DNA of 64,000 bases from assembly GCA_964445165.1 (NCBI GenBank), contig CAYUJZ010000001.1:1591-65590 (forward strand), read 5' to 3'. Positions 4,825 through 29,439 of this stretch are shown here, in pieces. The stretch's first letter is position 1; each line of letters opens with the position of its first letter. A program made the position numbers and the translations under genes. Source of the stretch: an uncultured Methanosarcinales archaeon. Lineage in GTDB: Archaea > Nanobdellota > Nanobdellia > Woesearchaeales > JASKKU01. The notes under the pieces are model-generated. The model saw only the letters and a program-made list of their open reading frames with translations, was not told the DNA's origin and did no database searches.

Positions 4825-5126
4825 TAGAATACTCGCTTAAAAAAAACGCTGCTATCATTGAGTTTGAAGATTCTGTTTATCCCTATCCGATAATACTGGA
4901 AGCTGCCCACAACTTTCTGGAAGGCTGTTGGGTTACGCTTGAAAAGAAAGGCAAAAGGTACATTCTGGGAATTGAGTCAAAAGAAGACGATGAAGCTTCT
5001 GAAATAATCTCTGCTTTTTTCAATTTCATGAATGGGCTTATCTTCAGCAAAATTTCGGAAGAAGCCAACGATGATGAAAAAAACAAAGGCGAGGATGAGT
5101 GCAGACCGGAAAAGGAGGAATGTTAA
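4821..5126 (+). CDS. small hypothetical protein ending ...GEDECRPEKEEC, immediately upstream of the rSAM-SPASM gene
   Basis: 101 aa ORF. Its start overlaps the previous stop in an ATGA arrangement, and it is followed 27 nt later by the rSAM-SPASM ORF. Confidence 0.4.
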   Translation: MIEYSLKKNAAIIEFEDSVYPYPIILEAAHNFLEGCWVTLEKKGKRYILGIESKEDDEASEIISAFFNFMNGLIFSKISEEANDDEKNKGEDECRPEKEEC

Positions 5127-5153
5127 CCAAGCCAGATAAAAAGCGGTTGTTTT

Positions 5154-6581
5154 TTGAAGATGAAAAAAAAATATATCCTTGGAAGGGACTACAAAGAAAC
5201 TTTTTGCAGAGTTAAAGACTATGGGAAAAAGGGAAAGCTCATTATAAATGAGCTTGGCAAATGGCTTCTTCTGAGCAATGACGAATACAAAAGGTTTGTT
5301 TTCAAAGACTTTGACCAGGAGCTCTTCGAAAAGCTTGAGAAGAGCCTGCTCATAAAGACAAAAGCAAACTCAAAAGACATTCTTCATTTTTCAGGAAAAA
5401 TGTTTTGGGATATTACCAACGCGACAAGCCTCCATATCCTGGTGCCAACACTCAGGTGCAACCACACCTGTACCTACTGCTATGCTTTTAGAGAGCCTGA
5501 GGAAGCCAAAGGGTATGATATGAGTGAGGATACTGCAAAAAGAATTGTTGACTTCATTTTTCAGGCGCCTGCACCCAATATAGTTATTGAGTTTACGGGC
5601 GGAGAGCCCCTGCTTAAGCCAGACATTATCAGGTTCATTGTTGAATATGCAGAAGAAAAAAACAAAAAAGCACAGAAAAAACTAAGTTTTGCTCTCGTAA
5701 CAAATGGAACCTTGCTTGATGAGGGAATGTTTAAGTTTATCAAAGAACATAAAATAGGGCTTTGCTTTTCTCTGGATGGGCCAAAAGAAGTCCACGACAA
5801 GAATAGAAAATACACAAAATTCCCGGGAAAAAGCACATACGAAGATGTATACAGGCTGGTAAAAAAATACAAGATGAAAGAATACAAAGAGAGAACCTTT
5901 GCCCTTCCAGTCATAACAAAATCAGCTCTTCCCAAATATAAAAAGATAATTGACCTCTATGTCAGCTTGGGTTTCAAAAGCTTTAGATACAAGTACCTAA
6001 CCGACTTTGGCTTTGCCACATCAAACTGGAAGAATCTTTCTTACTCGCCGGAACAGTTTGTAAAAACTTGGAAGAATGTTGTTGAATATATCCTTGAGCT
6101 GAATAAAAAGGGCATCCAGATGAGAGAAGAAATTACAAGCATCTTCATTAGAAAGCTTATTTTGGGCGAAAATCCGGGCTTTGCAGAACTCGCTGTTCCT
6201 TGCGGGGCTGTTGACGGGCAGATTATTTATGATTACGATGGCGGGATTTACACCTGTGATGAGGCAAGAACGCTGGGAGACACCTTTAAGATTGGCAATG
6301 TTCACGATATTGACTACAAAGATATGAAGAACAACAAGATTAGAAAACTTATGAAAATCAATTCTGCCTTGTTTGGGTTTACTTGTGATGACTGCCCTTG
6401 GATTCCTTTTTGTGGCATATGTCCGCTTGAAAACTATAAAAAAGAGGGCACTATGGTAGTGAATATCCCTAAAAACAGCAGGTGCTACATTCACAAAAAC
6501 ATGATTGAATACCTTTTTGAGAAGGTTTTATTTGACAAGGAAGCTTCAGAGCTATTAAGAAAATGGCCAAAGATTAACTGA
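5154..6581 (+). CDS. radical SAM enzyme with a full C-terminal SPASM domain and a ~100 aa N-terminal extension (peptide-maturase-like architecture)
   Basis: CNHTCTYC is a CxxxCxxC motif and GGEPLL follows. The C-terminus reads C..GGIYTC(GX4C)...CDDCPWIPFCGICP...C, a 7-Cys SPASM pattern. Confidence 0.85.
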   Translation: MKMKKKYILGRDYKETFCRVKDYGKKGKLIINELGKWLLLSNDEYKRFVFKDFDQELFEKLEKSLLIKTKANSKDILHFSGKMFWDITNATSLHILVPTLRCNHTCTYCYAFREPEEAKGYDMSEDTAKRIVDFIFQAPAPNIVIEFTGGEPLLKPDIIRFIVEYAEEKNKKAQKKLSFALVTNGTLLDEGMFKFIKEHKIGLCFSLDGPKEVHDKNRKYTKFPGKSTYEDVYRLVKKYKMKEYKERTFALPVITKSALPKYKKIIDLYVSLGFKSFRYKYLTDFGFATSNWKNLSYSPEQFVKTWKNVVEYILELNKKGIQMREEITSIFIRKLILGENPGFAELAVPCGAVDGQIIYDYDGGIYTCDEARTLGDTFKIGNVHDIDYKDMKNNKIRKLMKINSALFGFTCDDCPWIPFCGICPLENYKKEGTMVVNIPKNSRCYIHKNMIEYLFEKVLFDKEASELLRKWPKIN

Positions 6582-6618
6582 ACCACTGAATTCAGCACAT
6601 TTTTTATCTTGCTCCAAA

Positions 6619-7581
6619 ATGACAGAAAGAGTAGATGTCAAAACAGGGTACTACTGCAATAATTGGTGCAGGTTCTGCGTTCAGGCTCAAAACAGGAAAT
6701 ATGGTAATAGAACTACTCAGGAGATTAAGGATTCTCTTGCTGAAGCAAAGAAAGGAGGGGTAACCGGAGTAGTTTTCACAGGCGGCGAGTTCACAATAAG
6801 AAAAGATGCCCTTACCTTGATTAAATATGCGAAATCCATTGGCTATAATGATGTGATGCTACAGTCAAATGGGAGAATGTTCTCCAACAAGGATTATGTT
6901 AAAAAACTTATCTCTGCAGGTGCAAACCAATTTTCTCCTGCAATTCATGGCTCTTGCGCCGAAATACACGACTACCTTACGCGTGCCCCCGGCGCATGGA
7001 ATCAGGCAGTTAGAGGAATCAGGCTCCTCAGAAGCCTGGACCAAAATGTAATCATTAACTGTGTTGTTGTGAAGGCAAACATGAGAGACCTGCCAAACAT
7101 TGCAAAGCTGCTTGTAAGCCTGGATGTGAACCAGTTTCAGTTTGCATTTGTTCATATAATGGGAAATGCTTTTGAGAATAAGGAATCAATTGTGCCTATC
7201 GCAAGCACCACTTCTCTTTATATGAAAAAAGGGCTCATAATAGGAATAAATGCCAAGAAAAGAGTTATGGTTGAGGCAATGCCTTATTGCCTTATGAAGG
7301 GCTACGAAAGGTATGTCACTGAGCTGTACATTCCAGAGACAATGGTGAGAGAAAAGGACTTTTGGATAAAAGACTTCGAGAAAGTCAGAAGAACAGAAGG
7401 AAAAACGCTTTTCTCTCAGTGCAAAGAATGCAGGTTCAGGCTAATTTGCGAGGGTCCCTGGAGAGAATACCCTGAACTAATGGGAAAGGACGAATTCAAG
7501 CCTGTTCCCGGGGAAGTAATAAAAAACAAAAAAGAAATACTTGATAACTATGAGGATTTTCCTGTTGTTCCAACAGTGTAA
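6619..7581 (+). CDS. short radical SAM enzyme, twitch-like C-terminus (family member 1)
   Basis: CNNWCRFC motif at residues 13-20, TGGEFT, HG...H..LTR...W.QAV.GIRLL, and C-terminal CKECRFRLIC. Confidence 0.8.
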   Translation: MTERVDVKTGYYCNNWCRFCVQAQNRKYGNRTTQEIKDSLAEAKKGGVTGVVFTGGEFTIRKDALTLIKYAKSIGYNDVMLQSNGRMFSNKDYVKKLISAGANQFSPAIHGSCAEIHDYLTRAPGAWNQAVRGIRLLRSLDQNVIINCVVVKANMRDLPNIAKLLVSLDVNQFQFAFVHIMGNAFENKESIVPIASTTSLYMKKGLIIGINAKKRVMVEAMPYCLMKGYERYVTELYIPETMVREKDFWIKDFEKVRRTEGKTLFSQCKECRFRLICEGPWREYPELMGKDEFKPVPGEVIKNKKEILDNYEDFPVVPTV

Positions 7582-7595
7582 CATCAATCTTTAAC

Positions 7596-8729
7596 TTGCT
7601 AGGGGAGGAAAAAATGATACAAAAAAACGAGAATAATTCCCGGAAAGATACATCTCTGGCTATCGACAAAATAGCTCACCTGAGAAATCCCTTTCAACTG
7701 CTTTCAAGAATCGCCTTTTTAATAATAATCGCCTTAATCCTGTACATTGGCTTGAATAGAAGAAGCTTTGTGCTGATAATCATTGGGGGCGTCCTTGTTG
7801 CAACCTTCGCTCTTTTTTTGCTTAATGGCCTCATGACGAAAGTATCCTTAAGTGAACAAAAGATTTGCATCAGGACATTAACAGACAAACTGGAAATAAA
7901 AAAGAAAAACACCAGGAGAATTACAAGACTAATTCCAAAAAAAAAAAATACAAACTATAGGGAATACATTATTGAATATGAAGACGAAGAAGAAAACGAA
8001 GTAATCAAGAAGAGAATATATGGAATTTATGATTATGCAACTTTTGAAGATGCCTTGCGGGAATGGGATATTCCTATAACCAATGTTTCGAAAAGAAAAT
8101 ACAACAAAAAAACAGCTTATTTTTTTGCTGGTGCCTTTGTAATACTCTCTATCATTTTTATGCTTGCGTATTTTGGCGGAAATAATAAAAACCTCGGAGA
8201 GCCTTCTATTCCCGGCGGATTCTTAACTGATTCAGAAGATGCATCAGAGCTAAATCTTCATAAGCTGAGCGTCAGGATGCAGTCTGTAATAGAAGACTTA
8301 AATCAGGGGCATCTTTTCGAAGGGATTGAAAAACCTATTCAAGCAAGAAGAGTATTTCTAAGTTCAGATAAGCTAATGCTTTTTTCAACAGAAGAGCCTT
8401 ATCCCAGACTTGCAATCCTTTACCTATTCTCTGATACTACTCTCAACTTTTCAATCAGGCTTTGCTTTGATGAATTATGCAAGTATTATTCTGAATTTAG
8501 AATGAAGGCTTCAGACTTTAGCCATCCTCCAGCTTTCATTACTTCCGCGGATTCGCCTCTTGTAGACATTGAGCTTAAAACTTCAATAAATGATTTGAGG
8601 GGAACTGCCTTTTTATCTTTTGGGCTGGATAAAATAGAAGGACTGTGGATTGAAAGGGTTGAATTGATCGAAAACGAAGCGAGAAGAGAAGAACACGCAG
8701 CCTTTGATGTTAAGGAGGTAATAAGATGA
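7596..8729 (+). CDS. membrane protein of unknown function (3 TM); its C-terminal domain is paralogous to the next ORF
   Basis: 377 aa. The LMLFSTEE...LNFSIRLCFDELC segment resembles LFLFSSSRKED...VKLCFSESCDE in the 8726 ORF. A 12-nt poly-A tract lies in the coding sequence at 7937-7948. Confidence 0.5.
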   Translation: MLGEEKMIQKNENNSRKDTSLAIDKIAHLRNPFQLLSRIAFLIIIALILYIGLNRRSFVLIIIGGVLVATFALFLLNGLMTKVSLSEQKICIRTLTDKLEIKKKNTRRITRLIPKKKNTNYREYIIEYEDEEENEVIKKRIYGIYDYATFEDALREWDIPITNVSKRKYNKKTAYFFAGAFVILSIIFMLAYFGGNNKNLGEPSIPGGFLTDSEDASELNLHKLSVRMQSVIEDLNQGHLFEGIEKPIQARRVFLSSDKLMLFSTEEPYPRLAILYLFSDTTLNFSIRLCFDELCKYYSEFRMKASDFSHPPAFITSADSPLVDIELKTSINDLRGTAFLSFGLDKIEGLWIERVELIENEARREEHAAFDVKEVIR

Positions 8730-9217
8730 GCGAAGGTAGCCTGGAGCAAAACATCCCTGATATGGAAGAGGTAAGAGAACTCATATTGAGCAGGGCAATA
8801 TTTAAAGAGGTAAAAGAGGTTAGGCCCCTGAGGAAAGTTTACTTTTCAAACGAAAGCCTATTTTTGTTCTCATCTTCAAGAAAAGAAGACAAATTAAGCA
8901 TGATTTACAGAATTGCAAAAAATGAAGAAGCAAGTGTTAAGCTATGCTTTAGCGAAAGCTGTGATGAGAATACTACATTTATAATGAGCAGAGATGGATT
9001 ATCTGACGGGAAAGTCAAGACAAGCATTTCCTACATGAGCCCTCTAAGAGACTTCGTACTTGTGACATCTTCAGATGACGAGTTGAGGGTTTTTCTATTA
9101 AGCTTTGACAAAAAAAGCGTGGATAACAAAATGCTTTTCAAGATAATAGTTGAAGAAATAAAAGAAGATGGTGAAAAAACTAAAAAAGAGTACACTGTTG
9201 GAAAAAAAATAAAATAA
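8726..9217 (+). CDS. soluble hypothetical protein, paralogous to the C-terminal domain of the preceding ORF
   Basis: 163 aa with an ATGA overlap to the upstream ORF. Confidence 0.5.
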   Translation: MSEGSLEQNIPDMEEVRELILSRAIFKEVKEVRPLRKVYFSNESLFLFSSSRKEDKLSMIYRIAKNEEASVKLCFSESCDENTTFIMSRDGLSDGKVKTSISYMSPLRDFVLVTSSDDELRVFLLSFDKKSVDNKMLFKIIVEEIKEDGEKTKKEYTVGKKIK

Positions 9218-9226
9218 TCTCCGAAA

Positions 9227-10897
9227 ATGACTGAAGAGCTAGTTAAAGTAAAGGGAATGGTTGTGCCTAAAAGCTTTAAGGATGAGATTTGTCCCAAGAT
9301 TACAGGAAAGCCTAATGCTGATTTTGTTGTATATAAGGGAGAGTATGCTCTTCTTTACCTGGATGACGACATAAGCTTCGATAGCCTGAAAGAAAAGCTG
9401 AGAAAAGTTGACTTTTCAAAGCTTAGAGAAAAGAAGACATTTATATTTCACAGAGGAGATAAAATATTCAGGACGGAGAAATACTTAACCTACCTGATGA
9501 TCTTCCTGGCAAAGGCAGGAATTGAATTTCAGGCTGTGGGAATTCCTTCGTGTTATTTGCAGGACAGGCTTTCAAGCTCATATGAAATAAAAGCCTTTAT
9601 GAAGGAGAATGAAACAGAGTTCGAAAATTACTTTTATTTTGAAGACTGCAAGGCCTGCAGGCTAAGATGTGCCTGTCCGGGCGCCCTTCAAAAGTACGCT
9701 GACCAGGTTTTTCCGGTTTTCTCTGATAAGAGAAAAGCCTTATCAAGCATAAGCCAGGAAATTAAGGCAAAACCAAAAGTAATCCTGAGCAAAATTGAAG
9801 ATTATGATGCCGCTCTTATTGAAAAACACATCGTTGAATCATTTGAAAAACTTGGCTTGCTGAGGCAAATAGGAAGTGAAACAAAAATTCTTATAAAGCC
9901 AAACTTAGCAGAGCCCTTCTCGCCTGAGAAGGCTGCAACGACTCATCCTGCAATTGTAGAAAGCATTATAATGCTTCTGATTAAGAAATGCAATCCAGAA
10001 AATATTTTTCTCGCGGATGTATCTGCCGGAACAAACTATAAAGAAAGCGAAAAAGCCTACAGCAATACAGGAATGCAGAAAATTGCCGATAATTACGGCA
10101 TCAAAATCATTCAATCGAAAGATATGCAATTCCTTTACAAGCAGTGTACCAACTCCTATTGGCTTGATGGCACAGATTACTTAACAATAATAAATGATGT
10201 CGATTTCATAATAAATGTTCCGAAATTCAAGACACATGGAATCTCGTTTTTTACTGGTGCGGTGAAAAACATTTTTGGGACAATCCATCCTGAAGAAAGA
10301 AAATTCATACACGCAAGGGAAGATAAGGAAGAATTTTGCAAGGGGCTTGTTGACTGCTTCTCCGGCATAGCGCATAAGGTTGCTGTTAACGTAATAGATG
10401 CGATTATTGGCATGGAAGGCGACGAAGGCCCAAGCTACGGAAATCCAAAAAAAATTGGAGCGTTGATAATTTCAAGAGATCCTGTTGCTGCTGATGCAAC
10501 TGCGTGCAGGCTAGTTGGATACAACCCCGAGGCAATGCCCACAATTAAGTTAGGCAAAGAAAAGCTTCTGGGAGAATTTGAAGAAAAAGAAATTGACATC
10601 AGCAAAGACGTCAGTAGCATGCAGGTTAAGGACTTCAAGAAGAACTCGCTTTTTGATTTTATTAACAAGCACAAGAAAGAGAAGGGCTTCGGAAAGACTT
10701 TTCTTTATAATGTAAAAATTACCGAAAAATGCGTTAAATGCGGCTCCTGCTTCCATTCCTGCCCTGTGAAAGCTATCGATATTGATGAAAACGGAAAATA
10801 TTACATCAACCAGCACAACTGCATAAGGTGCTACACCTGCCATGAATGCTGCCCAAACCACGCAATAGAACTAATCAAAATAAAAAACCCTGACTAA
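9227..10897 (+). CDS. DUF362-like domain protein with two C-terminal 4Fe-4S ferredoxin motifs and an N-terminal CKACRLRCACPG cluster
   Basis: C-terminal CVKCGSCFHSCP and CIRCYTCHECCP (2x CxxCxxCxxxCP). The central region (KILIKPNLAEP...THPAIVESII) looks DUF362-like. Confidence 0.55.
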   Translation: MTEELVKVKGMVVPKSFKDEICPKITGKPNADFVVYKGEYALLYLDDDISFDSLKEKLRKVDFSKLREKKTFIFHRGDKIFRTEKYLTYLMIFLAKAGIEFQAVGIPSCYLQDRLSSSYEIKAFMKENETEFENYFYFEDCKACRLRCACPGALQKYADQVFPVFSDKRKALSSISQEIKAKPKVILSKIEDYDAALIEKHIVESFEKLGLLRQIGSETKILIKPNLAEPFSPEKAATTHPAIVESIIMLLIKKCNPENIFLADVSAGTNYKESEKAYSNTGMQKIADNYGIKIIQSKDMQFLYKQCTNSYWLDGTDYLTIINDVDFIINVPKFKTHGISFFTGAVKNIFGTIHPEERKFIHAREDKEEFCKGLVDCFSGIAHKVAVNVIDAIIGMEGDEGPSYGNPKKIGALIISRDPVAADATACRLVGYNPEAMPTIKLGKEKLLGEFEEKEIDISKDVSSMQVKDFKKNSLFDFINKHKKEKGFGKTFLYNVKITEKCVKCGSCFHSCPVKAIDIDENGKYYINQHNCIRCYTCHECCPNHAIELIKIKNPD

Positions 10898-10941
10898 ATC
10901 AATGCTCTTTCAGAAAAATACAAGGTGAAACATATTTAAAA

Positions 10942-12663
10942 ATGAATAAGGAGATGCTTTTAGGGCTCGCTTCAGCAAATGTTCTTCTAATCAGGTTTTT
11001 CTTCACACTGCTTTTTCTTTCTTGCATTATCATTATTAAAAAAAAAAGAATTCCTTCAAAGGTTTTAATTATTGCACTTATTGCCTTCTCAATTGCCTTT
11101 GCTGATGCAATGCTTCTGCCAAAAAGAGACCTTATGTACAACGACGACTTCTACTACCAGTCTATGGCTTTATCTATAAAAGAACGCGGGAATTATTTTC
11201 TTTACCACAGGCAATTTGAAAGCGGCCCTTTTCCAAAGTCAATAGGGTACCCATTCATGCTTAGCCTCATTTACTCAACGGGAAACCTTAACCCAAAGCT
11301 CTCAAATTATGCCAATGCTTTCTTTTATGGGCTTTCTTTTGCACTTTTTGCTGTTCTTTTATGGAAAATAAATAAAACCAATGCGGAGGGAAAAAGAGAT
11401 GAAAAAGAAAAGGATAAACGCAAAAAGAAGGCACTTTTAGGCAAAAGCCTGCTTTTCACCATTTCCTTCATAGCAATGCTTTTGCTCATCTGGTCAAACA
11501 TACTCTTTAAAAAGCTTTCCACAACCGGAGAAACGCATGTTTTTTCCGTTTTTGCAATTGCTCTCTTCATTTATCTTTTTGTTAATTATGTTAAAAGAAG
11601 CTTTTCGGCATGGAGCTTTTTAGCTCTTATGGCTTCTGCCTTTCTGGCAATAGTTACAAGGCCCGAGAATGTAATGATAATATTCATTCTATACCTGGCT
11701 GCTTTTTCTCTTGCTCTGATTAACAGAAAAAAAGCTTTTTGGGTTTTTTTTTCGGCTATCCTGCTAAGCATTTTATGCATTCCTAATTTTCTGGTAATTA
11801 GGTCAGAATATATTGACATTCAATGGGGTGAGGGAAGTAATTTTGGATTGGAAAAAATACCCGAGAATGTTAGGTTTTTCTCAGATACTGTTTTTGGCAA
11901 TCAGTGGGAGTCCGGAATAGTTTTTCTGGCAGGATGCGCATACTCTTTGATTTTTTGCTTCTGGTTCCTTGCTTTTAAACTTTTGCCTTATTCAATTAAT
12001 AAGCTTAGGAAAAAATCATTTATGAAACAAGGCATTAATGCGTTTAATTTATTGTCGTTTTTCGTTATGTCGGTTCTTCTTGCTTTTACTCTTGTTATTT
12101 TTGTATCTCATGTTGACTCAAACAGGGCTCCAAGAATCTATCTCACACCAGTTATGCTTTCTTATGTTGTTTTTGGCTTGCTCGCTTTTTCGATTACAAG
12201 AAACTTTAGCAGCAAAAGGGGAAAAAAACACATCATTTACGGGGTTGCTTTTTTATCAATTGTATTGTTAGCACTTTCAAGCTTTTTCTCAGGTGTGAGG
12301 TGGGAAAAGGAGTTCAGGGAGTCAAGCAACCACAGGAAGGACCAACTTGACATGAGCGAACAGATTTACTTCTTTTTTCAGGGCATGAAAGGGGAGTATT
12401 ATGTAGTCACTCAATACCCTGAAGCTATGTTTTTTCTTGGTAAACGAGCCATAAGTGTTGATGCATTTATAGAGGGATACAACGAACTTAAAGGAAAAGA
12501 AATATATGTCTGGCTTAATAACCTATTTGACAATCCGGGATTTGCAAGAGACAAAACGCTGATGTTTTATAATCATATTAAAGAGGATGCTGAAATGATA
12601 ACGGTTCTCGAATATAAGGCCGGGCCTTATGAATCTAAGCTTGAGAAGCTGGAGTTTAATTGA
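10942..12663 (+). CDS. polytopic membrane protein, GT-C-fold (PMT/ArnT-like) glycosyltransferase candidate
   Basis: 573 aa, more than 12 predicted TM helices, acidic motif YNDDFYY in the first loop after TM1, no soluble domain. Confidence 0.45.
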   Translation: MNKEMLLGLASANVLLIRFFFTLLFLSCIIIIKKKRIPSKVLIIALIAFSIAFADAMLLPKRDLMYNDDFYYQSMALSIKERGNYFLYHRQFESGPFPKSIGYPFMLSLIYSTGNLNPKLSNYANAFFYGLSFALFAVLLWKINKTNAEGKRDEKEKDKRKKKALLGKSLLFTISFIAMLLLIWSNILFKKLSTTGETHVFSVFAIALFIYLFVNYVKRSFSAWSFLALMASAFLAIVTRPENVMIIFILYLAAFSLALINRKKAFWVFFSAILLSILCIPNFLVIRSEYIDIQWGEGSNFGLEKIPENVRFFSDTVFGNQWESGIVFLAGCAYSLIFCFWFLAFKLLPYSINKLRKKSFMKQGINAFNLLSFFVMSVLLAFTLVIFVSHVDSNRAPRIYLTPVMLSYVVFGLLAFSITRNFSSKRGKKHIIYGVAFLSIVLLALSSFFSGVRWEKEFRESSNHRKDQLDMSEQIYFFFQGMKGEYYVVTQYPEAMFFLGKRAISVDAFIEGYNELKGKEIYVWLNNLFDNPGFARDKTLMFYNHIKEDAEMITVLEYKAGPYESKLEKLEFN

Positions 12664-14162
12664 CAAAAATGGAGCTAATAGACACGATAATAAGGATGTC
12701 TTACAGAATCAATTTTGAAAGCTTCTATACTATATCGTCTTTCATTGTATTCCTGATAATTGCCTTGGTTGCACTTATTACATTCAAAGGAATAAGGCAA
12801 AGCCTAAAAGGCGGGATAAAAAAGGGAAAAATACGAAAATGGTCTAAAACTGCTATTGAAGTAATTATTGTTGGAGCAGTTGTGACAACATACTTTCTTA
12901 TAATTATGCAGGGAAAGGTGTTTTTTCCATATGATGAGACTGACATCAAGTATTATCACGGTTTCCAGAACATAATTGACCACTCAAGCTTTATGCTTTT
13001 TGGCACAACTGTCGGGCTGGGGTATTTTGCTGTCCCTATAATACTAATGCAAGCTTTCGGGATAAAAGACATGTTTCAGCTTTTCCCCCTGCTCAAGGCT
13101 CTCATGCTGTCCCTGATTTTGATTTTCTCTTATTTAATTTACTTCTTTTTCAGGAAAACGTCTCGGATTAAAGCCGGCTTTGCCTTAGCTGCCTTCCTTT
13201 CTTTTCCTGCGTTCGTAATGTCTGTCAGAGAGCTAAAAGCAATTTATTTTTTCGTTTTTCTCTCAACTTTGGCTTCTTACATGTTAATGTTGAAATGCAA
13301 GGATAAGAATTGCGGGGCAGAGTACCATTTGCTTTTTTTGCTTAATTATGCGCTTGGATCGCTTACAAGGCCAGAATTTCTTTTTTTTAACTTCCCTATT
13401 CTGATAGACTATGGGATAAGCCAATACAAAAATATAAAGGAGGAAGACTCCTGGCATGCAAAAGAGTGGCTGATTTTAGTTGTTTTTTGCCTGGTCTTAA
13501 TTGTCAGCATATTTCCTTTTTCAAGAACGATACAAAGAGTCACTGAACCTGATGAGGGCGGGAATTTTTTAAGGAATTTAAATTACCTTAAGGATTCTTT
13601 TCACAATCCAAACCTCTTTTTTGGGCCTGTTGCTCTATCATTAGTTTTTATTGTCTCGCTTCTTTTTTTCAAGCAAGCATTTTACTATGGCATAATTTAT
13701 CTGATGGTGCTAATGAGGCTCATGAATTCATTCTACTTTGATTCCCAGCTGTTTGGCTTTTATTTCTCAATTGCGTTAATAATACTCTTCCACAGGCTAA
13801 GGAAAAAAAAGGCTTTTTACTTGGCTGCGGCAATAACTATTATATTCAGTTTGAGCATTGTATTCAGCAATCTGGGCACAATCTTTATGGATGATGGCTC
13901 TGAAATCGTTGAATTTTTTTCTGACTATAAAGACAAAAACATGACCTTTTACACGAGATACCCTGGCGTATTTTTTTCGTACCTATTCAGAGGAACTAAT
14001 ATAACGGTTTTTGGAATGGATGAATGGAAGAATTTAAGCAATAATGAGATTCTTTTAGACCACAACTGCAACCCTATGAATATTGGAGGAACCCTGGTTG
14101 AGTTTGAAAAGGAAAGGTATCTAGGGTCTTTTATGCATTACTGCAAGCCAAAAAATAGCTGA
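12660..14162 (+). CDS. polytopic membrane protein, GT-C-like glycosyltransferase candidate
   Basis: 500 aa, many TM helices, PYDETD motif in the first loop, start overlaps the upstream stop. Confidence 0.45.
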   Translation: MTKMELIDTIIRMSYRINFESFYTISSFIVFLIIALVALITFKGIRQSLKGGIKKGKIRKWSKTAIEVIIVGAVVTTYFLIIMQGKVFFPYDETDIKYYHGFQNIIDHSSFMLFGTTVGLGYFAVPIILMQAFGIKDMFQLFPLLKALMLSLILIFSYLIYFFFRKTSRIKAGFALAAFLSFPAFVMSVRELKAIYFFVFLSTLASYMLMLKCKDKNCGAEYHLLFLLNYALGSLTRPEFLFFNFPILIDYGISQYKNIKEEDSWHAKEWLILVVFCLVLIVSIFPFSRTIQRVTEPDEGGNFLRNLNYLKDSFHNPNLFFGPVALSLVFIVSLLFFKQAFYYGIIYLMVLMRLMNSFYFDSQLFGFYFSIALIILFHRLRKKKAFYLAAAITIIFSLSIVFSNLGTIFMDDGSEIVEFFSDYKDKNMTFYTRYPGVFFSYLFRGTNITVFGMDEWKNLSNNEILLDHNCNPMNIGGTLVEFEKERYLGSFMHYCKPKNS

Positions 14163-14179
14163 AAAAAGAGGAAAAATAC

Positions 14180-16614: not shown

Positions 16615-16632
16615 CTTTTTTGCCCGCCAATC

Positions 16633-18408: not shown

Positions 18409-18433
18409 TTAATAAAAAGATAACGCGCCTTTA

Positions 18434-19879: not shown

Positions 19880-21243
19880 TCTAAAAGCCTTTTGAGCTTG
19901 TAAAAAAAGGTTTTTCTTTTTAAGGTTTGCCTTATGGATGTGGAAATCCTTTTTGGATGGAGATAGAAAGCCATAAAGGCATAGGTTTTTAGTAGCCTGA
20001 GAAGGGGTCGGGGAATGCCTGAAAGAGAGTCTTTTGAGCTTGTATAATAGCTTGAGAACGAACTATTCTTGCTTGCACTTCCTAAATATGTTCCTGGAAG
20101 CGCTGTGAGAACGCTGAAAGTTGCAAAATCCAGGCCTAAATTAGAGATTTTATTGATTTCTCTTACAGTTTCCCTTATTCCCTTGTTAGGAAAGCCAATC
20201 ATAAAAAAGCCAAGAGTTTTTATGCCAGCTTTGTTTAGGACCCGAATTGACTCTCTAACTTCTTTATGAGGAAGTACTTTTTTCAGCAGTTCGTTCCTAT
20301 TTTTTTCATCTAATGTTTCAATCCCCAGCCTTACTTCAACACATCCTGCCTTCTTCATAAGACTGGCTAATTCTGGTTTTACCAGGTCAGCCCTTGTATT
20401 GCATATCCAAGTGAATGAGATTCTTTGGGCTTTTTTAAGCTTAATAAGAGAATTGCAGAAATCAATTACATGTTCCTCATTCACAGTGAAGGAATCATCA
20501 TGAAGCATAAAGGAGTTTATATTGTGGTGTTTTTTCAGGAATTTCAGCTCTGAAAGTATAAAACTTATTTTTTTATGTTTTAATTTCTTTCCAAAAATGT
20601 TTTCCACTGTGGGCTGGCAGAATTTGCATTGGAAAGGGCATGAGCGTGAGGATGAGAAGCTCACTCCTCTTCGTTTTTTCAGGTAATCTAGGTACGGCCA
20701 GTGCCTAATGTAATCTTCAAGGTTTGGGATTATGCCCCAGTCTATCCTTGGGATTTCAAGGTTTGGAAAAAACTCTCTTTTTGTTTTGAGGATTTTCCTG
20801 TTTTTCCTAAAGCAAAGATTGGGAAGCTGCTCAAGCCTGCGATTCTGAAAAAGGGCTGAAATAGAGCCTGAATCTGCAAAGAGTTCAATTATGCTCTTTA
20901 ATGTTAACTCTCCCTCGCCCAAAACCGCAATGTCCGCGATGGTGAGGGATTTTTCTGGCTGTATTGTTGGGCCTGGGCCCCCTATTATTCTTAAAGCACT
21001 GATTTTTGAGAAAAAATGCCTGTTTTTGTTTAGATGGTATTCCATAGAAAAACTATTTGCAGAGAAAGCTACGATCTGGAACTTTTTAGAGAGAATCTCT
21101 TTGGAGAGTCTGTCAAAGTACCAAAAAGAAAAATCCTGCTCTTTCTTAAGGTAAGAGATTAGTTCAAGCAAGCCAGCGTTCACATGGCCTGTTTTTAAAC
21201 CCTGGTTCAGATCAACAAAGGCTATTCTAGGCTTTTGCCGCAT
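19876..21243 (-). CDS. class-B (B12-binding) radical SAM enzyme
   Basis: IIGGPGPT motif, then SCPFQCKFC; its stop overlaps the start of the upstream gene. Confidence 0.8.
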   Translation of the reverse strand: MRQKPRIAFVDLNQGLKTGHVNAGLLELISYLKKEQDFSFWYFDRLSKEILSKKFQIVAFSANSFSMEYHLNKNRHFFSKISALRIIGGPGPTIQPEKSLTIADIAVLGEGELTLKSIIELFADSGSISALFQNRRLEQLPNLCFRKNRKILKTKREFFPNLEIPRIDWGIIPNLEDYIRHWPYLDYLKKRRGVSFSSSRSCPFQCKFCQPTVENIFGKKLKHKKISFILSELKFLKKHHNINSFMLHDDSFTVNEEHVIDFCNSLIKLKKAQRISFTWICNTRADLVKPELASLMKKAGCVEVRLGIETLDEKNRNELLKKVLPHKEVRESIRVLNKAGIKTLGFFMIGFPNKGIRETVREINKISNLGLDFATFSVLTALPGTYLGSASKNSSFSSYYTSSKDSLSGIPRPLLRLLKTYAFMAFYLHPKRISTSIRQTLKRKTFFYKLKRLLE

Positions 21244-21534
21244 AAAACAGCAAGTATAAAGGGGTTTTTATTTATTTTGATTTTTCTGAGCTAAAAAAGA
21301 CATTCGGAATTAACCAAAGCAAATGCCTGAAACACAGCTAACATTATTAATCTAACAAAGGCTTGAGCTCGCCATCGCCATAAACTTCTTTATATGTGAT
21401 TGCTATTCCGGGACAGGAATCCTTGTAAATGCAGGGCTTGCATTTCTCGGTTTTTATGTGCATTTTGTCATCTTCTCCTGAGCCATTGATAAAGTAGGGG
21501 TTGTATTTCATCAGCCCAGGGAATATGCAGAAGG
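20829..21534. repeat. copy 1 of a ~706 bp segmental duplication (5' end of the B12-rSAM gene + intergenic spacer + 3' end of the short rSAM gene)
   Basis: Near-identical to 22433-23138 at a constant offset of 1604 bp. The antisense ORFs 20891-21154 and 22495-22758 encode identical peptides. Confidence 0.9.
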
Positions 21535-22228: not shown

Positions 22229-22340
22229 GAAATCACTATTGTTAGTCTTGCTTTATTATTTATAAAGCCTTTGGATTAAAAACAGTTTATTAATGGAAAG
22301 ATATAAAACATAAACCTTACTTCACAGAAAGATGCCAAAC

Positions 22341-22847
22341 CTATTGCTCACAAACTACTGCAATCGGTCGTGCCCTTACTGCTTTGCGAAGCAGAAGGTT
22401 GACCTTGAGAAGACAGAGGGGCTTGAGGGCGAGCTCAAGCCTTCGATTTTGAAAAAGGGCTGAAATAGAGCCTGAATCTGCAAAGAGTTCAATTATGCTC
22501 TTTAATGTTAACTCTCCCTCGCCCAAAACCGCAATGTCCGCGATGGTGAGGGATTTTTCTGGCTGTATTGTTGGGCCTGGGCCCCCTATTATTCTTAAAG
22601 CACTGATTTTTGAGAAAAAATGCCTGTTTTTGTTTAGATGGTATTCCATAGAAAAACTATTTGCAGAGAAAGCTACGATCTGGAACTTTTTAGAGAGAAT
22701 CTCTTTGGAGAGTCTGTCAAAGTACCAAAAAGAAAAATCCTGCTCTTTCTTAAGGTAAGAGATTAGTTCAAGCAAGCCAGCGTTCACATGGCCTGTTTTT
22801 AAACCCTGGTTCAGATCAACAAAGGCTATTCTAGGCTTTTGCCGCAT
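22341..22847 (-). pseudogene. truncated duplicate of the N-terminal 138 aa of the B12-rSAM gene at 19876-21243
   Basis: The N-terminal 138 aa (codons inside duplication copy 2) are identical to the 19876-21243 product, then it diverges into 30 unrelated residues and stops. Confidence 0.75.
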
Positions 22848-23138
22848 AAAACAGCAAGTATAAAGGGGTTTTTATTTATTTTGATTTTTCTGAGCTAAAA
22901 AAGACATTCGGAATTAACCAAAGCAAATGCCTGAAACACAGCTAACATTATTAATCTAACAAAGGCTTGAGCTCGCCATCGCCATAAACTTCTTTATATG
23001 TGATTGCTATTCCGGGACAGGAATCCTTGTAAATGCAGGGCTTGCATTTCTCGGTTTTTATGTGCATTTTGTCATCTTCTCCTGAGCCATTGATAAAGTA
23101 AGGGTTGTATTTCATCAGCCTAGGGAATATGCAGAAAA
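22433..23138. repeat. copy 2 of the ~706 bp segmental duplication; also carries a 3' fragment (about 60 codons) of the short rSAM gene
   Basis: A handful of mismatches relative to 20829-21534, e.g. gtagggg/gtaaggg. Confidence 0.9.
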
Positions 23139-23289
23139 GGCTATGCCCGCGAGAATTATCCCGTTGTTAACTAGGCTAAAAGAACTGACACTGCCTCTTT
23201 AATCATCCAGAAAAAAAGCAATCCTCTTTTTAACTTTAGGGAGCATTTCAATCATTAAGTTGTTGAGGATTCTTAAACATTTCCCTTTT

Positions 23290-25715: not shown

Positions 25716-25782
25716 AAAACAGGATTTATAAGCTTTTTGTTAGGTTTACCGGGGTTTCTCAAAGAAGGCTGCTTCTTTCCGA

Positions 25783-27372
25783 TTAGCCAGGAATTCTAAG
25801 GATTATGAACTCCGGGCTTTCATTATAAACAAGCTCAAAGGAGATGTTAAGGCTAGCCAGCTCATCTCTAACATCAAAATCCGCCCTCTCTGCAAACACA
25901 ATCAGGGTTTCCCCAGCTTCAGGCCTGTAATCTTCAAAAGAAATAGTATGGTCAAACCGTTTTATACATCTTTCATCAGAATAGAAAGCCATTAGATTAT
26001 CAGAAAGCATATCGGAAAACGGGATATTATAAAGAGTGAATCTTGCTGAACCAATATCAGCCACGCTCTCTAGGTAAGAGCAGTTTGCAGCCTTGCTAAT
26101 AAAATCCAGGCCATGGCTTTTTTGCGTACTTACATGCCCATAAATCGAAGGGTATGCATAAAAGCCGAAAAACAAGCTTGCTCCTGCCAAAAATACCAAA
26201 AGTGAAATGAATGCCATCTTTATCAAGGATTTTCTTTTGATAAGCTCAATCGAGCCTGATTCAAAAAAGCATGCGAGCAGAACAAAAAAGAAGAACAAAA
26301 GATAGGAAAAAAAATATTTCTGATTTACAAAAGTGGATGTTTCAAAAGATGAAAACAGAATAAGGAAAAAGAAGGGAAGCAGTGCCCACCATTTCTTAAA
26401 ATAAAACACATAAAAAGCTGTGAAGACAGAAAAACCAAGAAAGATAAAAAAAGACGGAAAATACGACAGCAAGCTCTCACTGACATTCATAAAGAAATAA
26501 TAAAGAGAGAAGCCGCGATTCACATTAAAGAACAGAACGTGATAGACAAATGGGGCAGCCAAAATAAAGAAAGCAGACAGGGCAACTGCAGAAAAAGCCT
26601 TATTCTTTTTAAGAAATTTATACGAGAAAACAAAAGGAATAAGAAAAAAAATCGCTCCGTGTTCAAACTTGATATATGCCATAGCAAGAAGAATTAGAAG
26701 AAAAAGCGAGACAAGAAAATAGCGTTTAGGCTTAGGCATAAAAAGCTTTCTATTTCCTTCGAGGCTGCAAAAAACAGGCACCAGCGCCACGATCAGGAAA
26801 AGAGAGAAAAATTCCGCAACTGAATATAGCGAACCATACAATGTTATTGGATTAAAGAAAATAAAGCACAATAATGCAAAAGAAGCAAGCCTGCTCAATT
26901 TTGTAGTCTTTAAGAGAAAGTAAAGCAAAATCCCGGCAGAAACAAAAACCAGGGGATTTAACAGGCTGATTTTTCTGGCGAAGCCAGAAAAAAGAGAAAA
27001 AAGGTACAGCACAAAAGAGTAACCCATAGGGTGAGATGGGTGAACAAAAGGGAGCAGAATCATTTTTTCAGAGAAGGGAATCTCAGGGTCCCGCATTATA
27101 TCAACATGATTCAGATATGTCCAAACTTGGGCGTCATGCCCAAAAAACGGCTCGTGCCTGAAAGAGAAAGCAGAATACAAAAAAACAAAGGCAATAATGA
27201 AAGCTACCAAGAAAAATGCGTCTTTCCAGCCAAGCTTAATTCCACTAAGGTGCTTTAAAAAAAAATAAAGCAAAAAACAGAAAAGCAAAGAGAATATAAT
27301 TATTACAAAAGGATACTCGAGCCTGCCCAATGCTGATAAGCCCGGTTCAAGAAAAGACAGGAACATAGGCAC
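25783..27372 (-). CDS. polytopic membrane protein, GT-C-like glycosyltransferase candidate
   Basis: 529 aa, more than 12 TM helices, FFGHDAQ in the first loop. Confidence 0.45.
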   Translation of the reverse strand: MPMFLSFLEPGLSALGRLEYPFVIIIFSLLFCFLLYFFLKHLSGIKLGWKDAFFLVAFIIAFVFLYSAFSFRHEPFFGHDAQVWTYLNHVDIMRDPEIPFSEKMILLPFVHPSHPMGYSFVLYLFSLFSGFARKISLLNPLVFVSAGILLYFLLKTTKLSRLASFALLCFIFFNPITLYGSLYSVAEFFSLFLIVALVPVFCSLEGNRKLFMPKPKRYFLVSLFLLILLAMAYIKFEHGAIFFLIPFVFSYKFLKKNKAFSAVALSAFFILAAPFVYHVLFFNVNRGFSLYYFFMNVSESLLSYFPSFFIFLGFSVFTAFYVFYFKKWWALLPFFFLILFSSFETSTFVNQKYFFSYLLFFFFVLLACFFESGSIELIKRKSLIKMAFISLLVFLAGASLFFGFYAYPSIYGHVSTQKSHGLDFISKAANCSYLESVADIGSARFTLYNIPFSDMLSDNLMAFYSDERCIKRFDHTISFEDYRPEAGETLIVFAERADFDVRDELASLNISFELVYNESPEFIILRIPG

Positions 27373-27413
27373 AAGTAAACCGGTTTTATTATAAATTTTT
27401 CTTTTTAATAAAA

Positions 27414-28409: not shown

Positions 28410-28497
28410 AAAAAAAGAAAAAAGTCTTTTCGTTTAAAAATATTTGCCTTGCCCTTAAATAGGCAATATTTTTAAATCCGGCAACCTCACTATTTAT

Positions 28498-29439
28498 ATG
28501 CAAAAAGAGTACTGCATCCTGAAAATAAACAACAAGTGCAACTACATATGCAACTTTTGTGCCGACTCTCTCAAGATTAAGGCTGAGGAGGAAATAGAAT
28601 TAAATGAAATTCTTTCCATAATTAAAAAAGAAAAAGATGAGGGTGCAATCAAGCTTCTTATAACAGGAGGGGAGCCAACCATATCCCCGCACCTTTTACC
28701 TGCTATTAAGAAAGGAAAAGAGCTTGGCTTTGAGAGCATTAGCCTAACAACAAATGGAAGAAAGCTTTCAGAAGATGATTTTTTCGCAGATGTTAACAGC
28801 TATATTGATGTTTACCTTATATCATTTTTCTCGGCTGACCCTTACACTTTTGACACTATCGCCGGAGTAAAAGGAGCTTTCTCAGATGTGAGTAAGGCTC
28901 TTCTTAAGATTTCAAGAGAGAAAAAAAAGAAACTTTGCATTAATTGTGTCATCTCAAGAATGAATTATAGAGAACTCAACAACATTGTTGTATATCTTGC
29001 ATCACTTGAAGCCTCTTTAATACAGTTCAGCTTTGCTAATATTGTTGGGTTTTTTAGAGATAATTTCGATAATCTTTTTGTTGATTACAATGAAATCTTG
29101 CCCTATGCTGTGAAAGCAATCCGGCTCTCTGAATACCTTAATTATAAAGGGCTTAGTTTTGAGAATTTTCCAATATGCCTTTTTTCAGGACACCTGCCTC
29201 TAAAAAAGGTTATGCCTAGGATATCTGACTTACACCATCCTGCAGGAAACAAAAAATACTATTCAAGCGGCAAGATGCATACACAAAAATGCAGGGAATG
29301 CTTCTTTCTAAACAGGTGCGAGGGCATTTACGAAGAGTACTATAGAAGAAGAGGAGACGGTGTGCTGACATCAATAAAAAAAGAAGATTTTGAAGACGAA
29401 AAAAAAGCAAATAAAAAAGAAAAAGTTAAAAATCATTAA
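28498..29439 (+). CDS. short radical SAM enzyme, twitch-like C-terminus (family member 6)
   Basis: CNYICNFC, TGGEPT, C-terminal CRECFFLNRC. Confidence 0.8.
   Translation: MQKEYCILKINNKCNYICNFCADSLKIKAEEEIELNEILSIIKKEKDEGAIKLLITGGEPTISPHLLPAIKKGKELGFESISLTTNGRKLSEDDFFADVNSYIDVYLISFFSADPYTFDTIAGVKGAFSDVSKALLKISREKKKKLCINCVISRMNYRELNNIVVYLASLEASLIQFSFANIVGFFRDNFDNLFVDYNEILPYAVKAIRLSEYLNYKGLSFENFPICLFSGHLPLKKVMPRISDLHHPAGNKKYYSSGKMHTQKCRECFFLNRCEGIYEEYYRRRGDGVLTSIKKEDFEDEKKANKKEKVKNH

Follow-up and report, generated by a model that had tools for sequence, protein, structure and literature searches.

The His-Xaa-Ser (HXS) radical S-adenosylmethionine (rSAM) system is attributed to Haft and Basu (2011). 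In bacteria, HxsB, HxsC and HxsD mature and N-terminally process an exported effector with His-x-Ser repeats, HxsA; HxsC binds HxsD, a +8 Da change has been reported on SHRSS, and the system acts against phages by blocking DNA entry, as shown only upon expression in E. coli (Li et al., Nat Commun 2026, PMC13128918). The accompanying survey covered bacteria only, via HxsA, assigned 99.7% of the systems to Pseudomonadota and did not mention archaea (PMC13128918). Here, we describe a gene island in a 64-kb stretch of contig CAYUJZ010000001.1 (assembly GCA_964445165.1) from an uncultured archaeon of the Woesearchaeales; this entire stretch is called the window, and positions are counted from its first letter. 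The island, which extends from approximately 2166 to 29439, is probably a much-enlarged, DPANN-archaeal variant of the HXS protein-maturation system, to which leader cleavage and glycosylation have been added. Its product is most likely a glycosylated and heavily modified surface protein.

The HXS core and its relatives

A previous reading of the same DNA, made from the sequence alone (the sequence-only reading), had noted ten rSAM genes, one of them of the rSAM/SPASM type. All ten are intact open reading frames (ORFs) that exceed the Pfam Radical_SAM cutoff and contain one CX3CX2C motif each (Table 1). The rSAM/SPASM gene was confirmed and can further be identified as hxsB, as its product aligns over the full length with TIGR03978 at 426.1 bits, above the curated equivalog cutoff of 370. 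HxsB is 29.6% identical to Klebsiella HxsB (E=1.6e-54; the Klebsiella reference proteins are from the canonical plasmid locus hxsD-hxsB-hxsC-hxsA), with CX3CX2C at residue 102 and SPASM cysteines at the C-terminus. Its next-best NCBIfam matches are all maturases of proteins or of ribosomally synthesized and post-translationally modified peptides (RiPPs), namely PapB, QhpD and SCIFF (170 to 110 bits).

By sequence comparison, the six rSAMs that had been described as short paralogues appear to belong to HxsC at the family level, not at the equivalog level. Klebsiella HxsC aligns full-length with all of them (E from 1e-21 to 1e-4), the C-terminal Cys motif being covered too, and the best HxsC-type scores across the six, 107.8 bits for HxsC and 135 bits for HxsC4, lie under the cutoffs. 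The description as short does not hold for rSAM521, whose orthologues in three other loci (75% identity in L090, 42% in L091/L092; L numbers designate individual loci) each adjoin an HxsC_c-like gene. The copy next to HxsB, HxsC_a, has HxsC4 (135 bits, cutoff 500) and HxsC (91.6 bits, cutoff 267.9) as its best NCBIfam matches, both sub-cutoff, and matches Klebsiella HxsC at E=1.3e-10; its orthologues adjoin HxsB in archaeal and bacterial loci (190–478 bits).

Three small, acidic ORFs precede hxsB, and HxsD or HxsD_rel are their sole NCBIfam matches (33, 33 and 20.8 bits on TIGR03976, cutoff 50). Their orthologues carry the Pfam domain PF27806 (HxsD), matched weakly by the L089 orthologue of HxsD-like protein 1, and the latter has an F-x-N ... 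YEL core in common with Klebsiella HxsD. The gene order D-B-C agrees with that of the bacterial HXS system. Because the HxsD-like and A24 peptidase genes adjoin upstream (2464–5126), the start of the island, which the sequence-only reading had set at 5154, is moved to near 2166, and s111, the A24 peptidase gene and the three HxsD-like genes belong to the unit.

The core of the island, whose identity was previously not recognized, is a named system: HxsB, HxsC-family paralogues and HxsD-like proteins. The close packing of the genes stands, with six overlaps of 4 bases. The inventory of rSAM genes was incomplete, as two further fragments are present (22341–22847 and a stub at approximately 22334–22433). 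Neither MoaA, QueE, TYW1 nor PflA was matched above cutoff by any of the rSAMs in NCBIfam, and these housekeeping identities, together with Tes and archaeosine RaSEA, were rejected, there being only weak generic rSAM matches far below cutoff. The co-occurrence of the genes, in turn, is conserved across other genomes, as follows.

A scan of genome contigs with the single HxsB protein found nothing, whereas an alignment-based HxsB scan of one genome per species succeeded and yielded 80 loci from DPANN archaea, bacteria of the candidate phyla radiation (CPR), Myxococcota and Elusimicrobia. HxsB homologues are abundant in DPANN lineages (Woese-, Aenigm-, Pace-, Nanohalo-, Iain- and Nanoarchaeota), the closest named ones being from Woesearchaeota (86%, 55% and 46% identity), and the A24-HxsD-HxsB core recurs in multiple DPANN lineages. 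In a related Woesearchaeota metagenome-assembled genome (MAG), hereafter the sister genome, three short contigs (L089, L088 and L086) keep the order of the left and central parts of the island at 40–86% protein identity: s111 - A24 - HxsD x3 - HxsB - HxsC / X377 - X163 - DUF362Fd, followed by Mem573 - Mem500 - [GT2] - DegT - rSAM448 - [GT2 - FAD oxidoreductase] - Mem591 - B12_481 - B12_455. The bracketed genes, two for family 2 glycosyltransferases (GT2) and one for an FAD oxidoreductase, are extra in the sugar module of the sister genome. Because the region 2166–21243 is syntenic in this related genome, the island is not a chance cluster. In the right-hand part, the block Mem529 - HxsC_c - rSAM521 is kept in L090, and the rSAM521/HxsC_c pair is conserved in L091 and L092 together with class-B rSAMs and a GT-C-like protein (GT-C, glycosyltransferase fold C). 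The swarm of additional HxsC-like rSAMs is a family trait and not peculiar to this window, because at least five rSAMs were found in 5 archaeal and 15 bacterial loci.

Table 1. Positions of the island genes and adjoining features in the window
Feature	Position	Strand	Basis or remark
Cys-rich secreted or membrane-anchored protein, 365 aa	947–2044	-	Divergent from the island; membership uncertain
s111, single-pass membrane protein, 111 aa	2166–2501	+	Overlaps start of A24 gene
Putative A24-family (type IV prepilin/preflagellin-like) aspartic leader peptidase, 392 aa	2464–3642	+	Archaeal C-terminal domain
HxsD-like protein 1, 198 aa	3735–4331	+	Acidic tail; TIGR03976 E=5.8e-8, 33 bits (cutoff 50)
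HxsD-like protein 2, 172 aa	4306–4824	+	TIGR03976 E=5.7e-8, 33 bits; paralogous to HxsD-like proteins 1 and 3
HxsD-like protein 3, 101 aa	4821–5126	+	NF038315 HxsD_rel E=1.5e-7, 31.5 bits (cutoff 41)
HxsB, rSAM/SPASM maturase	5154–6581	+	TIGR03978
HxsC_a, HxsC-family rSAM partner of HxsB, 320 aa	6619–7581	+	HxsC4 and HxsC matches
X377, three-transmembrane-segment protein	7596–8729	+	Located where hxsA sits in bacteria
X163, soluble paralogue of X377 C-terminal domain	8726–9217	+	Invariant C-F-[DS]-E-x-C motif
DUF362 + 2x[4Fe-4S] ferredoxin protein	9227–10897	+	Pfam DUF362 161.8 bits; Fer4 families (C-terminal ferredoxin domain)
Mem573, probable GT-C-like polytopic membrane protein	10942–12663	+	Structure model and motifs
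Mem500, putative GT-C-like polytopic membrane protein	12660–14162	+	hhalign to Mem591 family E=1.4e-3
DegT/DnrJ/EryC1-family sugar aminotransferase	14180–15271	+	Pfam PF01041 294.9 bits (cutoff 19.8)
rSAM448, class-B-like rSAM, no detectable B12 domain	15268–16614	+	Radical_SAM 55.5 bits, residues 190–347
Mem591, probable GT-C glycosyltransferase-like membrane protein	16633–18408	-	PMT_2 E=0.0017, 19 bits (cutoff 26.1)
B12_481, class-B (B12-binding) rSAM	18434–19879	-	B12-binding 58.2 bits; Radical_SAM 76.8 bits
B12_455, class-B-like rSAM	19876–21243	-	Radical_SAM 61.7 bits; B12-binding 22.3 bits, sub-cutoff
HxsC-family rSAM paralogue, 293 aa	21347–22228	-	HxsC4 and HxsC among top NCBIfam matches, sub-cutoff; Klebsiella HxsC E=1.3e-4
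Scrambled zone, three pieces	22334–23270		rSAM stub, 704-bp duplicate, precursor-leader remnant
rSAM521, HxsC-family rSAM, 521 aa	23290–24855	-	Extra C-terminal domain of ~220 aa
HxsC-family rSAM paralogue, 287 aa	24852–25715	-	TIGR03977 HxsC 107.8 bits (cutoff 267.9); Klebsiella HxsC E=1.1e-21
Mem529, putative GT-C-like polytopic membrane protein	25783–27372	-	hhalign to Mem591 family E=1.4e-3, 200 columns
HxsC-family rSAM paralogue, 331 aa	27414–28409	-	TIGR03977 89.3 bits; Klebsiella HxsC E=1.7e-17
HxsC-family rSAM paralogue, 313 aa	28498–29439	+	TIGR03977 90.8 bits; Klebsiella HxsC E=1.5e-14

Several of the loci have features of their own. The woesearchaeotal locus L004 (1400–8063 and 14987–21455) contains two tandem HxS precursors, an rSAM-DUF362 fusion, a 743-aa rSAM-methyltransferase fusion and, downstream, a protein of >2205 aa; a 563-aa ORF in this locus (12874–14565) has 12 hydrophobic segments, and a 365-aa gene nested in it (13468–14565) weakly matches the LA_3751/2 putative glycosyltransferase family (E=9e-9). 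HxsB homologues with 26–34% identity are also found on approximately 24 viral or proviral contigs of IMG/VR (L093–L116) and on 434 plasmid records, of which Klebsiella accounts for 315, mostly conjugative ones (e.g. L131). None of these is close to the archaeal clade, and their distribution fits a role of bacterial HXS as a mobile system of defence. On a Methylobacter plasmid (L130, 3334–7304), hxsB-hxsC is followed by a thermonuclease-family gene in place of hxsA, a further departure from the canonical HXS arrangement.

Precursors, their remnant and the A24 peptidase

In most loci, a small ORF directly 3' of hxsB encodes (HxS)n repeats, as revealed by a scan for ORFs of at least 40 aa with at least four HxS motifs within 80 residues; such precursors adjoin hxsB in 11 archaeal and 30 bacterial loci. 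The precursors of DPANN archaea and CPR bacteria start with a charged N-terminal leader, PKIKKKISSFLxxEEG(K/R)ISK, which is followed by one hydrophobic helix and the C-terminal (HxS)n region (a DPANN example reads ...SHSSHSSHSSHGSHNSW). Because the DPANN, CPR and Myxococcota precursors match the NCBIfam models HxsA3/HxsA4 (NF038309/NF038313, cutoffs 65/55 bits) with 40–105 bits, variant HXS systems are already curated at the annotation level.

Precursors from Myxococcota and CPR bacteria consist purely of (His-Gly-Ser)n, with repeats that can number >60 and end in Trp or Tyr; they are located just 3' of hxsB, at approximately 11400–12300 in locus coordinates (L026, L034–L036, L043, L070, L082 and others). 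Such runs are formally Gly-X-Y repeats and cross-match models of collagen-like adhesins. In the woesearchaeotal locus L016 (6850–7422), the HxS-repeat precursor continues at its C-terminus into a fused domain that is similar to a self-cleaving intramolecular chaperone, that of the long tail fibre of phage T5 (PDB 6f45, E=3e-7). This fusion hints at trimeric surface fibres formed by HxS-repeat proteins.

The same scan found no intact HxS-repeat protein in the 64 kb of the window; therefore, the defining HXS substrate is missing from it. The loci of the nearest relatives (L001, L002 and L006) likewise contain no HxS-repeat ORF, and no intact precursor lies beside rSAM521 in L091/L092, while L090 ends directly after this gene.

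A trace of a precursor may be preserved in a scrambled zone between two of the HxsC-family genes. On the plus strand, an orphan rSAM N-terminal stub of 36 aa with CX3CX2C (22334–22433) reads MPNLLLTNYCNRSCPYCFAKQK... and has a G+C content of 53%. Next to it, the segment 22433–23136 duplicates 20829–21532 as a direct repeat of 704 bp (99.4% identical by blastn), resulting in a truncated 168-aa ORF (22341–22847) that copies the N-terminus of B12_455. The third piece, on the minus strand from 23270 to 23140, resembles an HxsA3-type leader with an in-frame TAA at 23199–23201; its translation is MIEMLPKVKKRIAFFLDD, a stop, RGSVSSFSLVNNGIILAGIAFSAYSLG and two further stops. A hidden Markov model (HMM) of the leaders of 16 precursors matches this piece at E=9.5e-4, and when the stop was read as Glu, HxsA3 was the only match among 18,950 NCBIfam models (E=0.013, 15.3 bits). 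Because the leader remnant contains a stop and abuts the duplication, ending where the latter begins, there is modest support for a canonical precursor gene having once been present at 23140–23270 and since been destroyed, unless the arrangement is an assembly artefact; the scrambled zone may represent either a real rearrangement or a metagenome mis-assembly. Another leader-like match, at 59262–59486, was dismissed as noise (E=0.11). As only a broken remnant is found here, the substrate would be encoded outside the window or have been replaced, for example by s111 or X377/X163.

Members of the s111 family (104–111 aa) occur only in the clade of the window (L089, L001 and L006), always directly 5' of the A24 gene, and have two invariant Cys beside acidic residues. 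By eye, s111 looks like a diverged HxS-precursor leader, but this was rejected: the hhalign probability was 0.35%, s111 was absent among the leader-HMM matches at E<10, and it had no NCBIfam match. Its candidacy as an alternative substrate is speculative and comes from its position. X377, conserved in L088, L001 and L006, has a C-terminal domain paralogous to X163 and no family match in Pfam or NCBIfam scans. The X377/X163 family likewise has two invariant cysteines beside acidic residues and is a positional candidate for a replacement substrate. Two other assignments were rejected: X163 and the X377 C-terminal domain are not HxsD-like (hhalign probability 0.13%), and a 376-aa protein after HxsC in L002 is not an X377 homologue.

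The gene overlapped by s111 encodes what appears to be an archaeal type IV leader peptidase dedicated to Hxs loci, because its Asp pair is invariant, A24 and Arc_PepC matches were obtained, and the gene is linked to HxsB in archaea. The window protein itself matches only Arc_PepC, at 22.7 bits versus a cutoff of 23.4; across 19 Hxs-linked homologues, Peptidase_A24 was detected in 14 (best E=1.4e-11) and Arc_PepC in 18, and D31, D103, N39 and K105 are invariant in their alignment, the two Asp residues lying in the contexts D-x-K-x-G-K-I-x-N and GD(A/G)KL (D103). A search of PDB sequences with the A24 profile gave no FlaK match and only spurious Sec61-gamma matches. The A24 gene stands beside HxsD/HxsB in 17 of the 29 archaeal loci compared with 1 of the 54 bacterial loci, a linkage from which we infer that the peptidase cleaves the linked precursor.

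Membrane proteins, sugar module and flanking genes

The four polytopic membrane proteins of 500–590 aa that the sequence-only reading had described are present (573, 500, 591 and 529 aa, with 8–13 hydrophobic segments), and so are the acidic motifs of their first loops, whose topology is predicted: DDFYY in Mem573, DETDIKYY in Mem500, SESLTY in Mem591 and HDAQVWTY in Mem529. An acidic motif followed by Tyr is thus common to all four, Tyr being the sole invariant column when six homologues are added, and Mem573, Mem500 and Mem591 have a T-R-x-E motif in common (TRPE in Mem573 and Mem500). Mem573, Mem500 and Mem529 have no Pfam match, and none of the four exceeds the cutoff of a GT-C Pfam family such as PMT_2 or STT3. 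One distant Mem591 homologue, however, matches PMT_2 at 6.3e-13, and another matches STT3 at 1.2e-4.

Mem591 is a near-orphan with 5 homologues among 1.8 billion representatives in an exhaustive HMMER search; word-index searches with Mem591 and Mem573 returned just the query and one sister-genome orthologue, and a PDB sequence search with Mem591 was uninformative. The alignments behind the structure models were very shallow, because there are so few homologues. For the AlphaFold model of Mem591 (predicted local distance difference test, pLDDT, 58.9; predicted template-modelling score 0.57), the 13 best PDB matches are all GT-C enzymes, including ArnT (5ezm, E=6e-5, probability 1.00), STT3, DPY19 and PglB, with template-modelling (TM) scores of 0.28–0.40. 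The seven top matches of the Mem573 model (pLDDT 57.7) are AglB, ArnT and PglB (E from 4e-3 to 2e-2). The GT-C identity that had been proposed for these proteins is therefore retained in a tempered form: the two models match only GT-C enzymes at significant E values, at pLDDT 58–59 and TM scores of 0.28–0.40. In view of the model matches, the PMT_2 and STT3 matches of homologues and the common motifs, Mem591 and Mem573 are probably GT-C-like, and Mem500 and Mem529 may be so by similarity. Orthologues were found for Mem573 in L088, L001 and L006, for Mem500 in L088 and for Mem529 in L090 (46% identity), and an HMM of the GT-C-like family also picks up polytopic proteins encoded at other Hxs loci (L012, 1e-13; L091/92, 4e-8; L016, 4e-7; L072, 1.5e-6).

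The DegT and DUF362-ferredoxin genes were found where the sequence-only reading had placed them. The best NCBIfam match of DegT is PseC (220 bits, cutoff 423), and no specific equivalog can be assigned; a lysine, the putative PLP-binding residue, lies within YATKNIATGEGG as read by eye, and L086/L088 encode a 63% identical orthologue. The three rSAMs that had been classified as B12-binding class-B enzymes proved heterogeneous: B12_481 has both domains, the B12-binding match of B12_455 is sub-cutoff, and no B12 domain was detected in rSAM448, which aligns weakly with HpnJ, HpnR and PhpK in NCBIfam. No NCBIfam equivalog cutoff is passed by these proteins.

In the DUF362-ferredoxin protein, the N-terminal ~190 residues (9227–9800), especially residues 106–193, resemble the Cys-rich C-termini of HxsC_a and rSAM521 and are devoid of CX3CX2C. 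The protein thus looks like a decayed rSAM-DUF362 fusion, as kept intact in L004. Its orthologues are present in L001, L002, L006, L009, L029 and L088, and DUF362 is classed with the 2-hydroxy-acid epimerases of the LarA clan.

A GT2 glycosyltransferase of 230 aa encoded elsewhere in the window (54676–55368, minus strand) is 26% identical to the sugar-module GT2 of the sister genome; it is as large as a polyprenyl-phosphate sugar synthase, is located 25 kb off the island and could supply donors to the GT-C enzymes.

The G+C content is 0.34–0.42 within the island and 0.43–0.48 in the housekeeping flanks. The last HxsC-family gene directly precedes a ribosomal-protein operon (L15, from 29462, L30, S5, L18 and L19e), and ThiI, SRP54, Kae1 and GyrB are encoded among the other flanking genes. 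The S5 ORF (30363–31571, minus strand) is 402 aa long with S5 domains at residues 218–361 only, and the L30 ORF (29987–30445, minus strand) is extended at its N-terminus by ~30 residues with many Lys, Arg and Ser; the starts may have been mis-called, or the extensions may be DPANN specific. Two further ORFs among the housekeeping genes, of 1289 aa (44923–48792) and 436 aa (58595–59905), both on the minus strand, have no Pfam match at E<=1e-4. At the left border, the Cys-rich protein at 947–2044 has no Pfam or NCBIfam match; its homologues (875–1026 aa, with internal repeats) are encoded divergently beside A24/Hxs genes in L001 and L020, and it may either act at the surface together with the island products or serve as a substrate.

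Proposed function, alternatives and comparison with known systems

In the mechanism that we propose, the precursor, anchored in the membrane and equipped with a leader, would be handed by HxsD-like adaptors to HxsB and the HxsC-type rSAMs for covalent modification in the cytoplasm. The membrane A24 peptidase would cut off the leader, leaving the modified repeat region anchored at the cell surface, where PMT/ArnT/STT3-like GT-C enzymes would glycosylate it from polyprenyl-phosphate-linked donors; a serine-rich repeat would be an obvious target for O-glycosylation. The DegT aminotransferase and the class-B-like rSAMs may synthesize the donor sugar or tailor it, by C-methylation or a similar reaction, and the DUF362-ferredoxin protein could supply electrons or act as an epimerase-like enzyme. 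A bolder and, as a whole, rather unlikely extension of this scheme is that DPANN archaea build rSAM-matured, membrane-anchored surface fibres that are cleaved by the A24 peptidase and O-glycosylated by PMT-like GT-C enzymes with a radical-tailored amino sugar, that CPR bacteria and Myxococcota do so without the peptidase, and that the lineage of the window lost the HxS substrate and retargeted the machinery to substrates with Cys/acid motifs, either s111 or X377/X163.

Several observations weigh against the island being an HXS variant of this kind. The window contains no intact HxS-repeat protein, and the assignment of the remnant is weak (E of ~1e-3 and 0.013). Every HxsC and HxsD match is sub-cutoff on the curated models. 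The residue at position -2 of the presumed cleavage site in the precursors, as judged by eye, is Glu, not Lys/Arg, and the A24 peptidase could be the general prepilin peptidase of the cell. The GT-C models are of low confidence, and the Mem573 alignment borrowed sequences from the Mem591 family. Orthologues of DegT, the class-B rSAMs, Mem500 and Mem591 are found only in the sister genome and not near HxsB in distant loci. Furthermore, the duplication and the pseudogene traces suggest partial decay.

This decay might have gone so far that the island, or a partly mis-assembled version of it, no longer has a defined product. The nonsense codon and truncation of the precursor remnant, the near-identical 704-bp duplication, the truncated B12-rSAM copy and the orphan rSAM stub at 53% G+C would all be expected in that case. 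However, the damage is limited to approximately 1 kb; ten rSAMs, four membrane proteins, the A24 peptidase, DegT and the DUF362 protein are all full-length with intact motifs, and the 40–86% identity of the sister-genome orthologues implies purifying selection. We therefore regard this explanation as very improbable. It is also quite unlikely that the rSAMs act on a sugar, a lipid or a cofactor, with the homology to HxsB, HxsC and HxsD reflecting the recruitment of enzymes. The lack of an intact precursor in the window would fit such a non-peptide substrate, as would the combination of class-B rSAMs and DegT, which is typical of sugar and aminoglycoside tailoring (the NCBIfam neighbours AprD4, PhpK and HpnJ/R are far sub-cutoff), and the position of DUF362 in the LarA clan. 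Nevertheless, HxsB scores as a true equivalog of a peptide/protein maturase and all of its next-best matches are RiPP or protein maturases, HxsD-type adaptors and a leader peptidase serve to handle proteins, and close as well as distant relatives encode ribosomal precursors, a remnant of which is present in the window. Among the products that the sequence-only reading had considered, the glycosylated peptide consequently fits best, and a free glycan or glycolipid is less likely because relatives encode ribosomal (HxS)n precursors beside HxsB.

Surface-glycan genes frequently cluster within variable islands, which raises the possibility that two unrelated neighbours have been taken for one unit: an HXS cluster (2166–10897 and the right-hand HxsC paralogues) and an independent envelope glycan or glycolipid pathway (10942–21243) that decorates lipids or S-layer proteins generally. 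In line with this, DegT, rSAM448, B12_481, B12_455, Mem500 and Mem591 have orthologues in the sister genome only and none beside HxsB in 80 other loci, and the GT2 genes in the module of the sister genome are typical of general glycan assembly. On the other hand, the two modules adjoin each other in the same orientation, genes around the boundary overlap by 4 bases, and the order is kept in the sister genome. Mem529 sits among the HxsC paralogues, an arrangement kept in L090; Mem573 comes after the DUF362 gene in L001 and L006; and GT-C-like proteins recur at several other Hxs loci. On this evidence, a split into two clusters seems unlikely. The same degree of doubt applies to the view that the island, like bacterial HXS, serves in antiviral defence, in which a modified, positively charged surface or pseudo-periplasmic protein stops the entry of viral DNA. 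Its B, C and D components are homologous to those of a system with demonstrated antiphage activity (PMC13128918), the G+C content is below that of the flanks, the gene content differs between close relatives, with duplication and pseudogene scars, and bacterial hxsB genes are carried on plasmids and IMG/VR contigs. However, HxsA and a peptidoglycan-binding domain are absent, PADLOC models yield just generic (viperin-like) rSAM matches, the archaeal precursors are membrane-anchored, unlike HxsA, and the role of the system was shown in E. coli only. A defence function would concern the biological role of the island and is compatible with the mechanism proposed above.

If the maturation and glycosylation of a surface protein by the island is correct, this would be a possible case of rSAM modification and glycosylation being coupled on one protein, and the retargeting, if true, would represent natural substrate switching in an rSAM maturation system. 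The link to an archaeal A24 peptidase provides a concrete candidate for N-terminal processing, a step left unexplained in the bacterial work, and the island offers testable enzyme-substrate pairs for rSAM chemistry. Given the very small genomes of DPANN cells, the approximately 27 kb that the island devotes to ten radical enzymes and four GT-C-like transferases suggest an important surface structure, which might have a bearing on host attachment or virus resistance. More generally, DPANN archaea, CPR bacteria and Myxococcota widely possess the HxsB/C/D machinery, with different membrane-anchored (HxS)n precursors.

The statement of the sequence-only reading that no characterized archaeal pathway has such a composition stands, as our literature search found no publication on archaeal HXS loci, their A24 peptidase or their glycosylation genes. 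Among related enzyme families, the rSAM/SPASM maturases PapB (ranthipeptide), QhpD, SCIFF and anSME, which form thioether or C-C cross-links, resemble HxsB in the pattern of their SPASM cysteines and in relying on a leader or an adaptor, but none is at cutoff for it. The archaeal prepilin/preflagellin peptidases PibD, FlaK and EppA (MEROPS A24) are, like the window protein, polytopic with an Asp pair and an Arc_PepC C-terminal domain. The window-type A24 genes, in contrast, are genomically tied to Hxs loci, not to operons for pili or archaella, and their presumed leader of ~26 aa has Glu-Glu-Gly before the hydrophobic segment instead of the canonical Lys/Arg-Gly. Established GT-C enzymes with polyprenyl-phosphate donors (ArnT/GT83, PMT/GT39 and AglB/STT3) have a layout that the island proteins would share according to prediction: 10–13 transmembrane helices, a soluble domain at the C-terminus and, in the first external loop, an acidic motif with Tyr after it. 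DegT stands beside the GT-C-like genes as the ArnB aminotransferase does beside ArnT. In contrast to such systems, the island lacks a nucleotide-sugar dehydratase, a formyltransferase and a GT2.

The closest described system remains bacterial HXS, with which the island has in common an HxsB equivalog, an HxsC-family rSAM gene directly 3' and HxsD-like genes directly 5' of it and, in the relatives of the island, an exported and presumably N-terminally processed His-x-Ser repeat substrate. As for the HxsA3/HxsA4/HxsC4 variants (NF038309, NF038313 and NF038332), HxsC4 is the best match of HxsC_a and HxsA3 the only match of the remnant, but the scores are far sub-cutoff (135 versus 500 and 15 versus 65 bits, respectively). 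Compared with bacterial HXS, the island is archaeal, has neither HxsA nor a peptidoglycan-binding domain, contains three genes for HxsD-like and six for HxsC-like proteins where the bacterial system has a single one of either kind, and occupies ~27 kb instead of ~3.4 kb; the window HxsC is devoid of the ~95-aa N-terminal extension of Klebsiella HxsC, and an A24 peptidase, a DUF362-ferredoxin protein, GT-C-like transferases, DegT and class-B rSAMs are added. The island is not a categorically new kind of system, because its core falls within the HXS family, and public DPANN MAGs already carry the annotation HxsB. What is new here is the archaeal host, the dedicated A24 peptidase, the threefold HxsD, the sixfold HxsC and the DUF362-ferredoxin protein, together with the GT-C, DegT and class-B rSAM genes and the loss of the defining repeat substrate.

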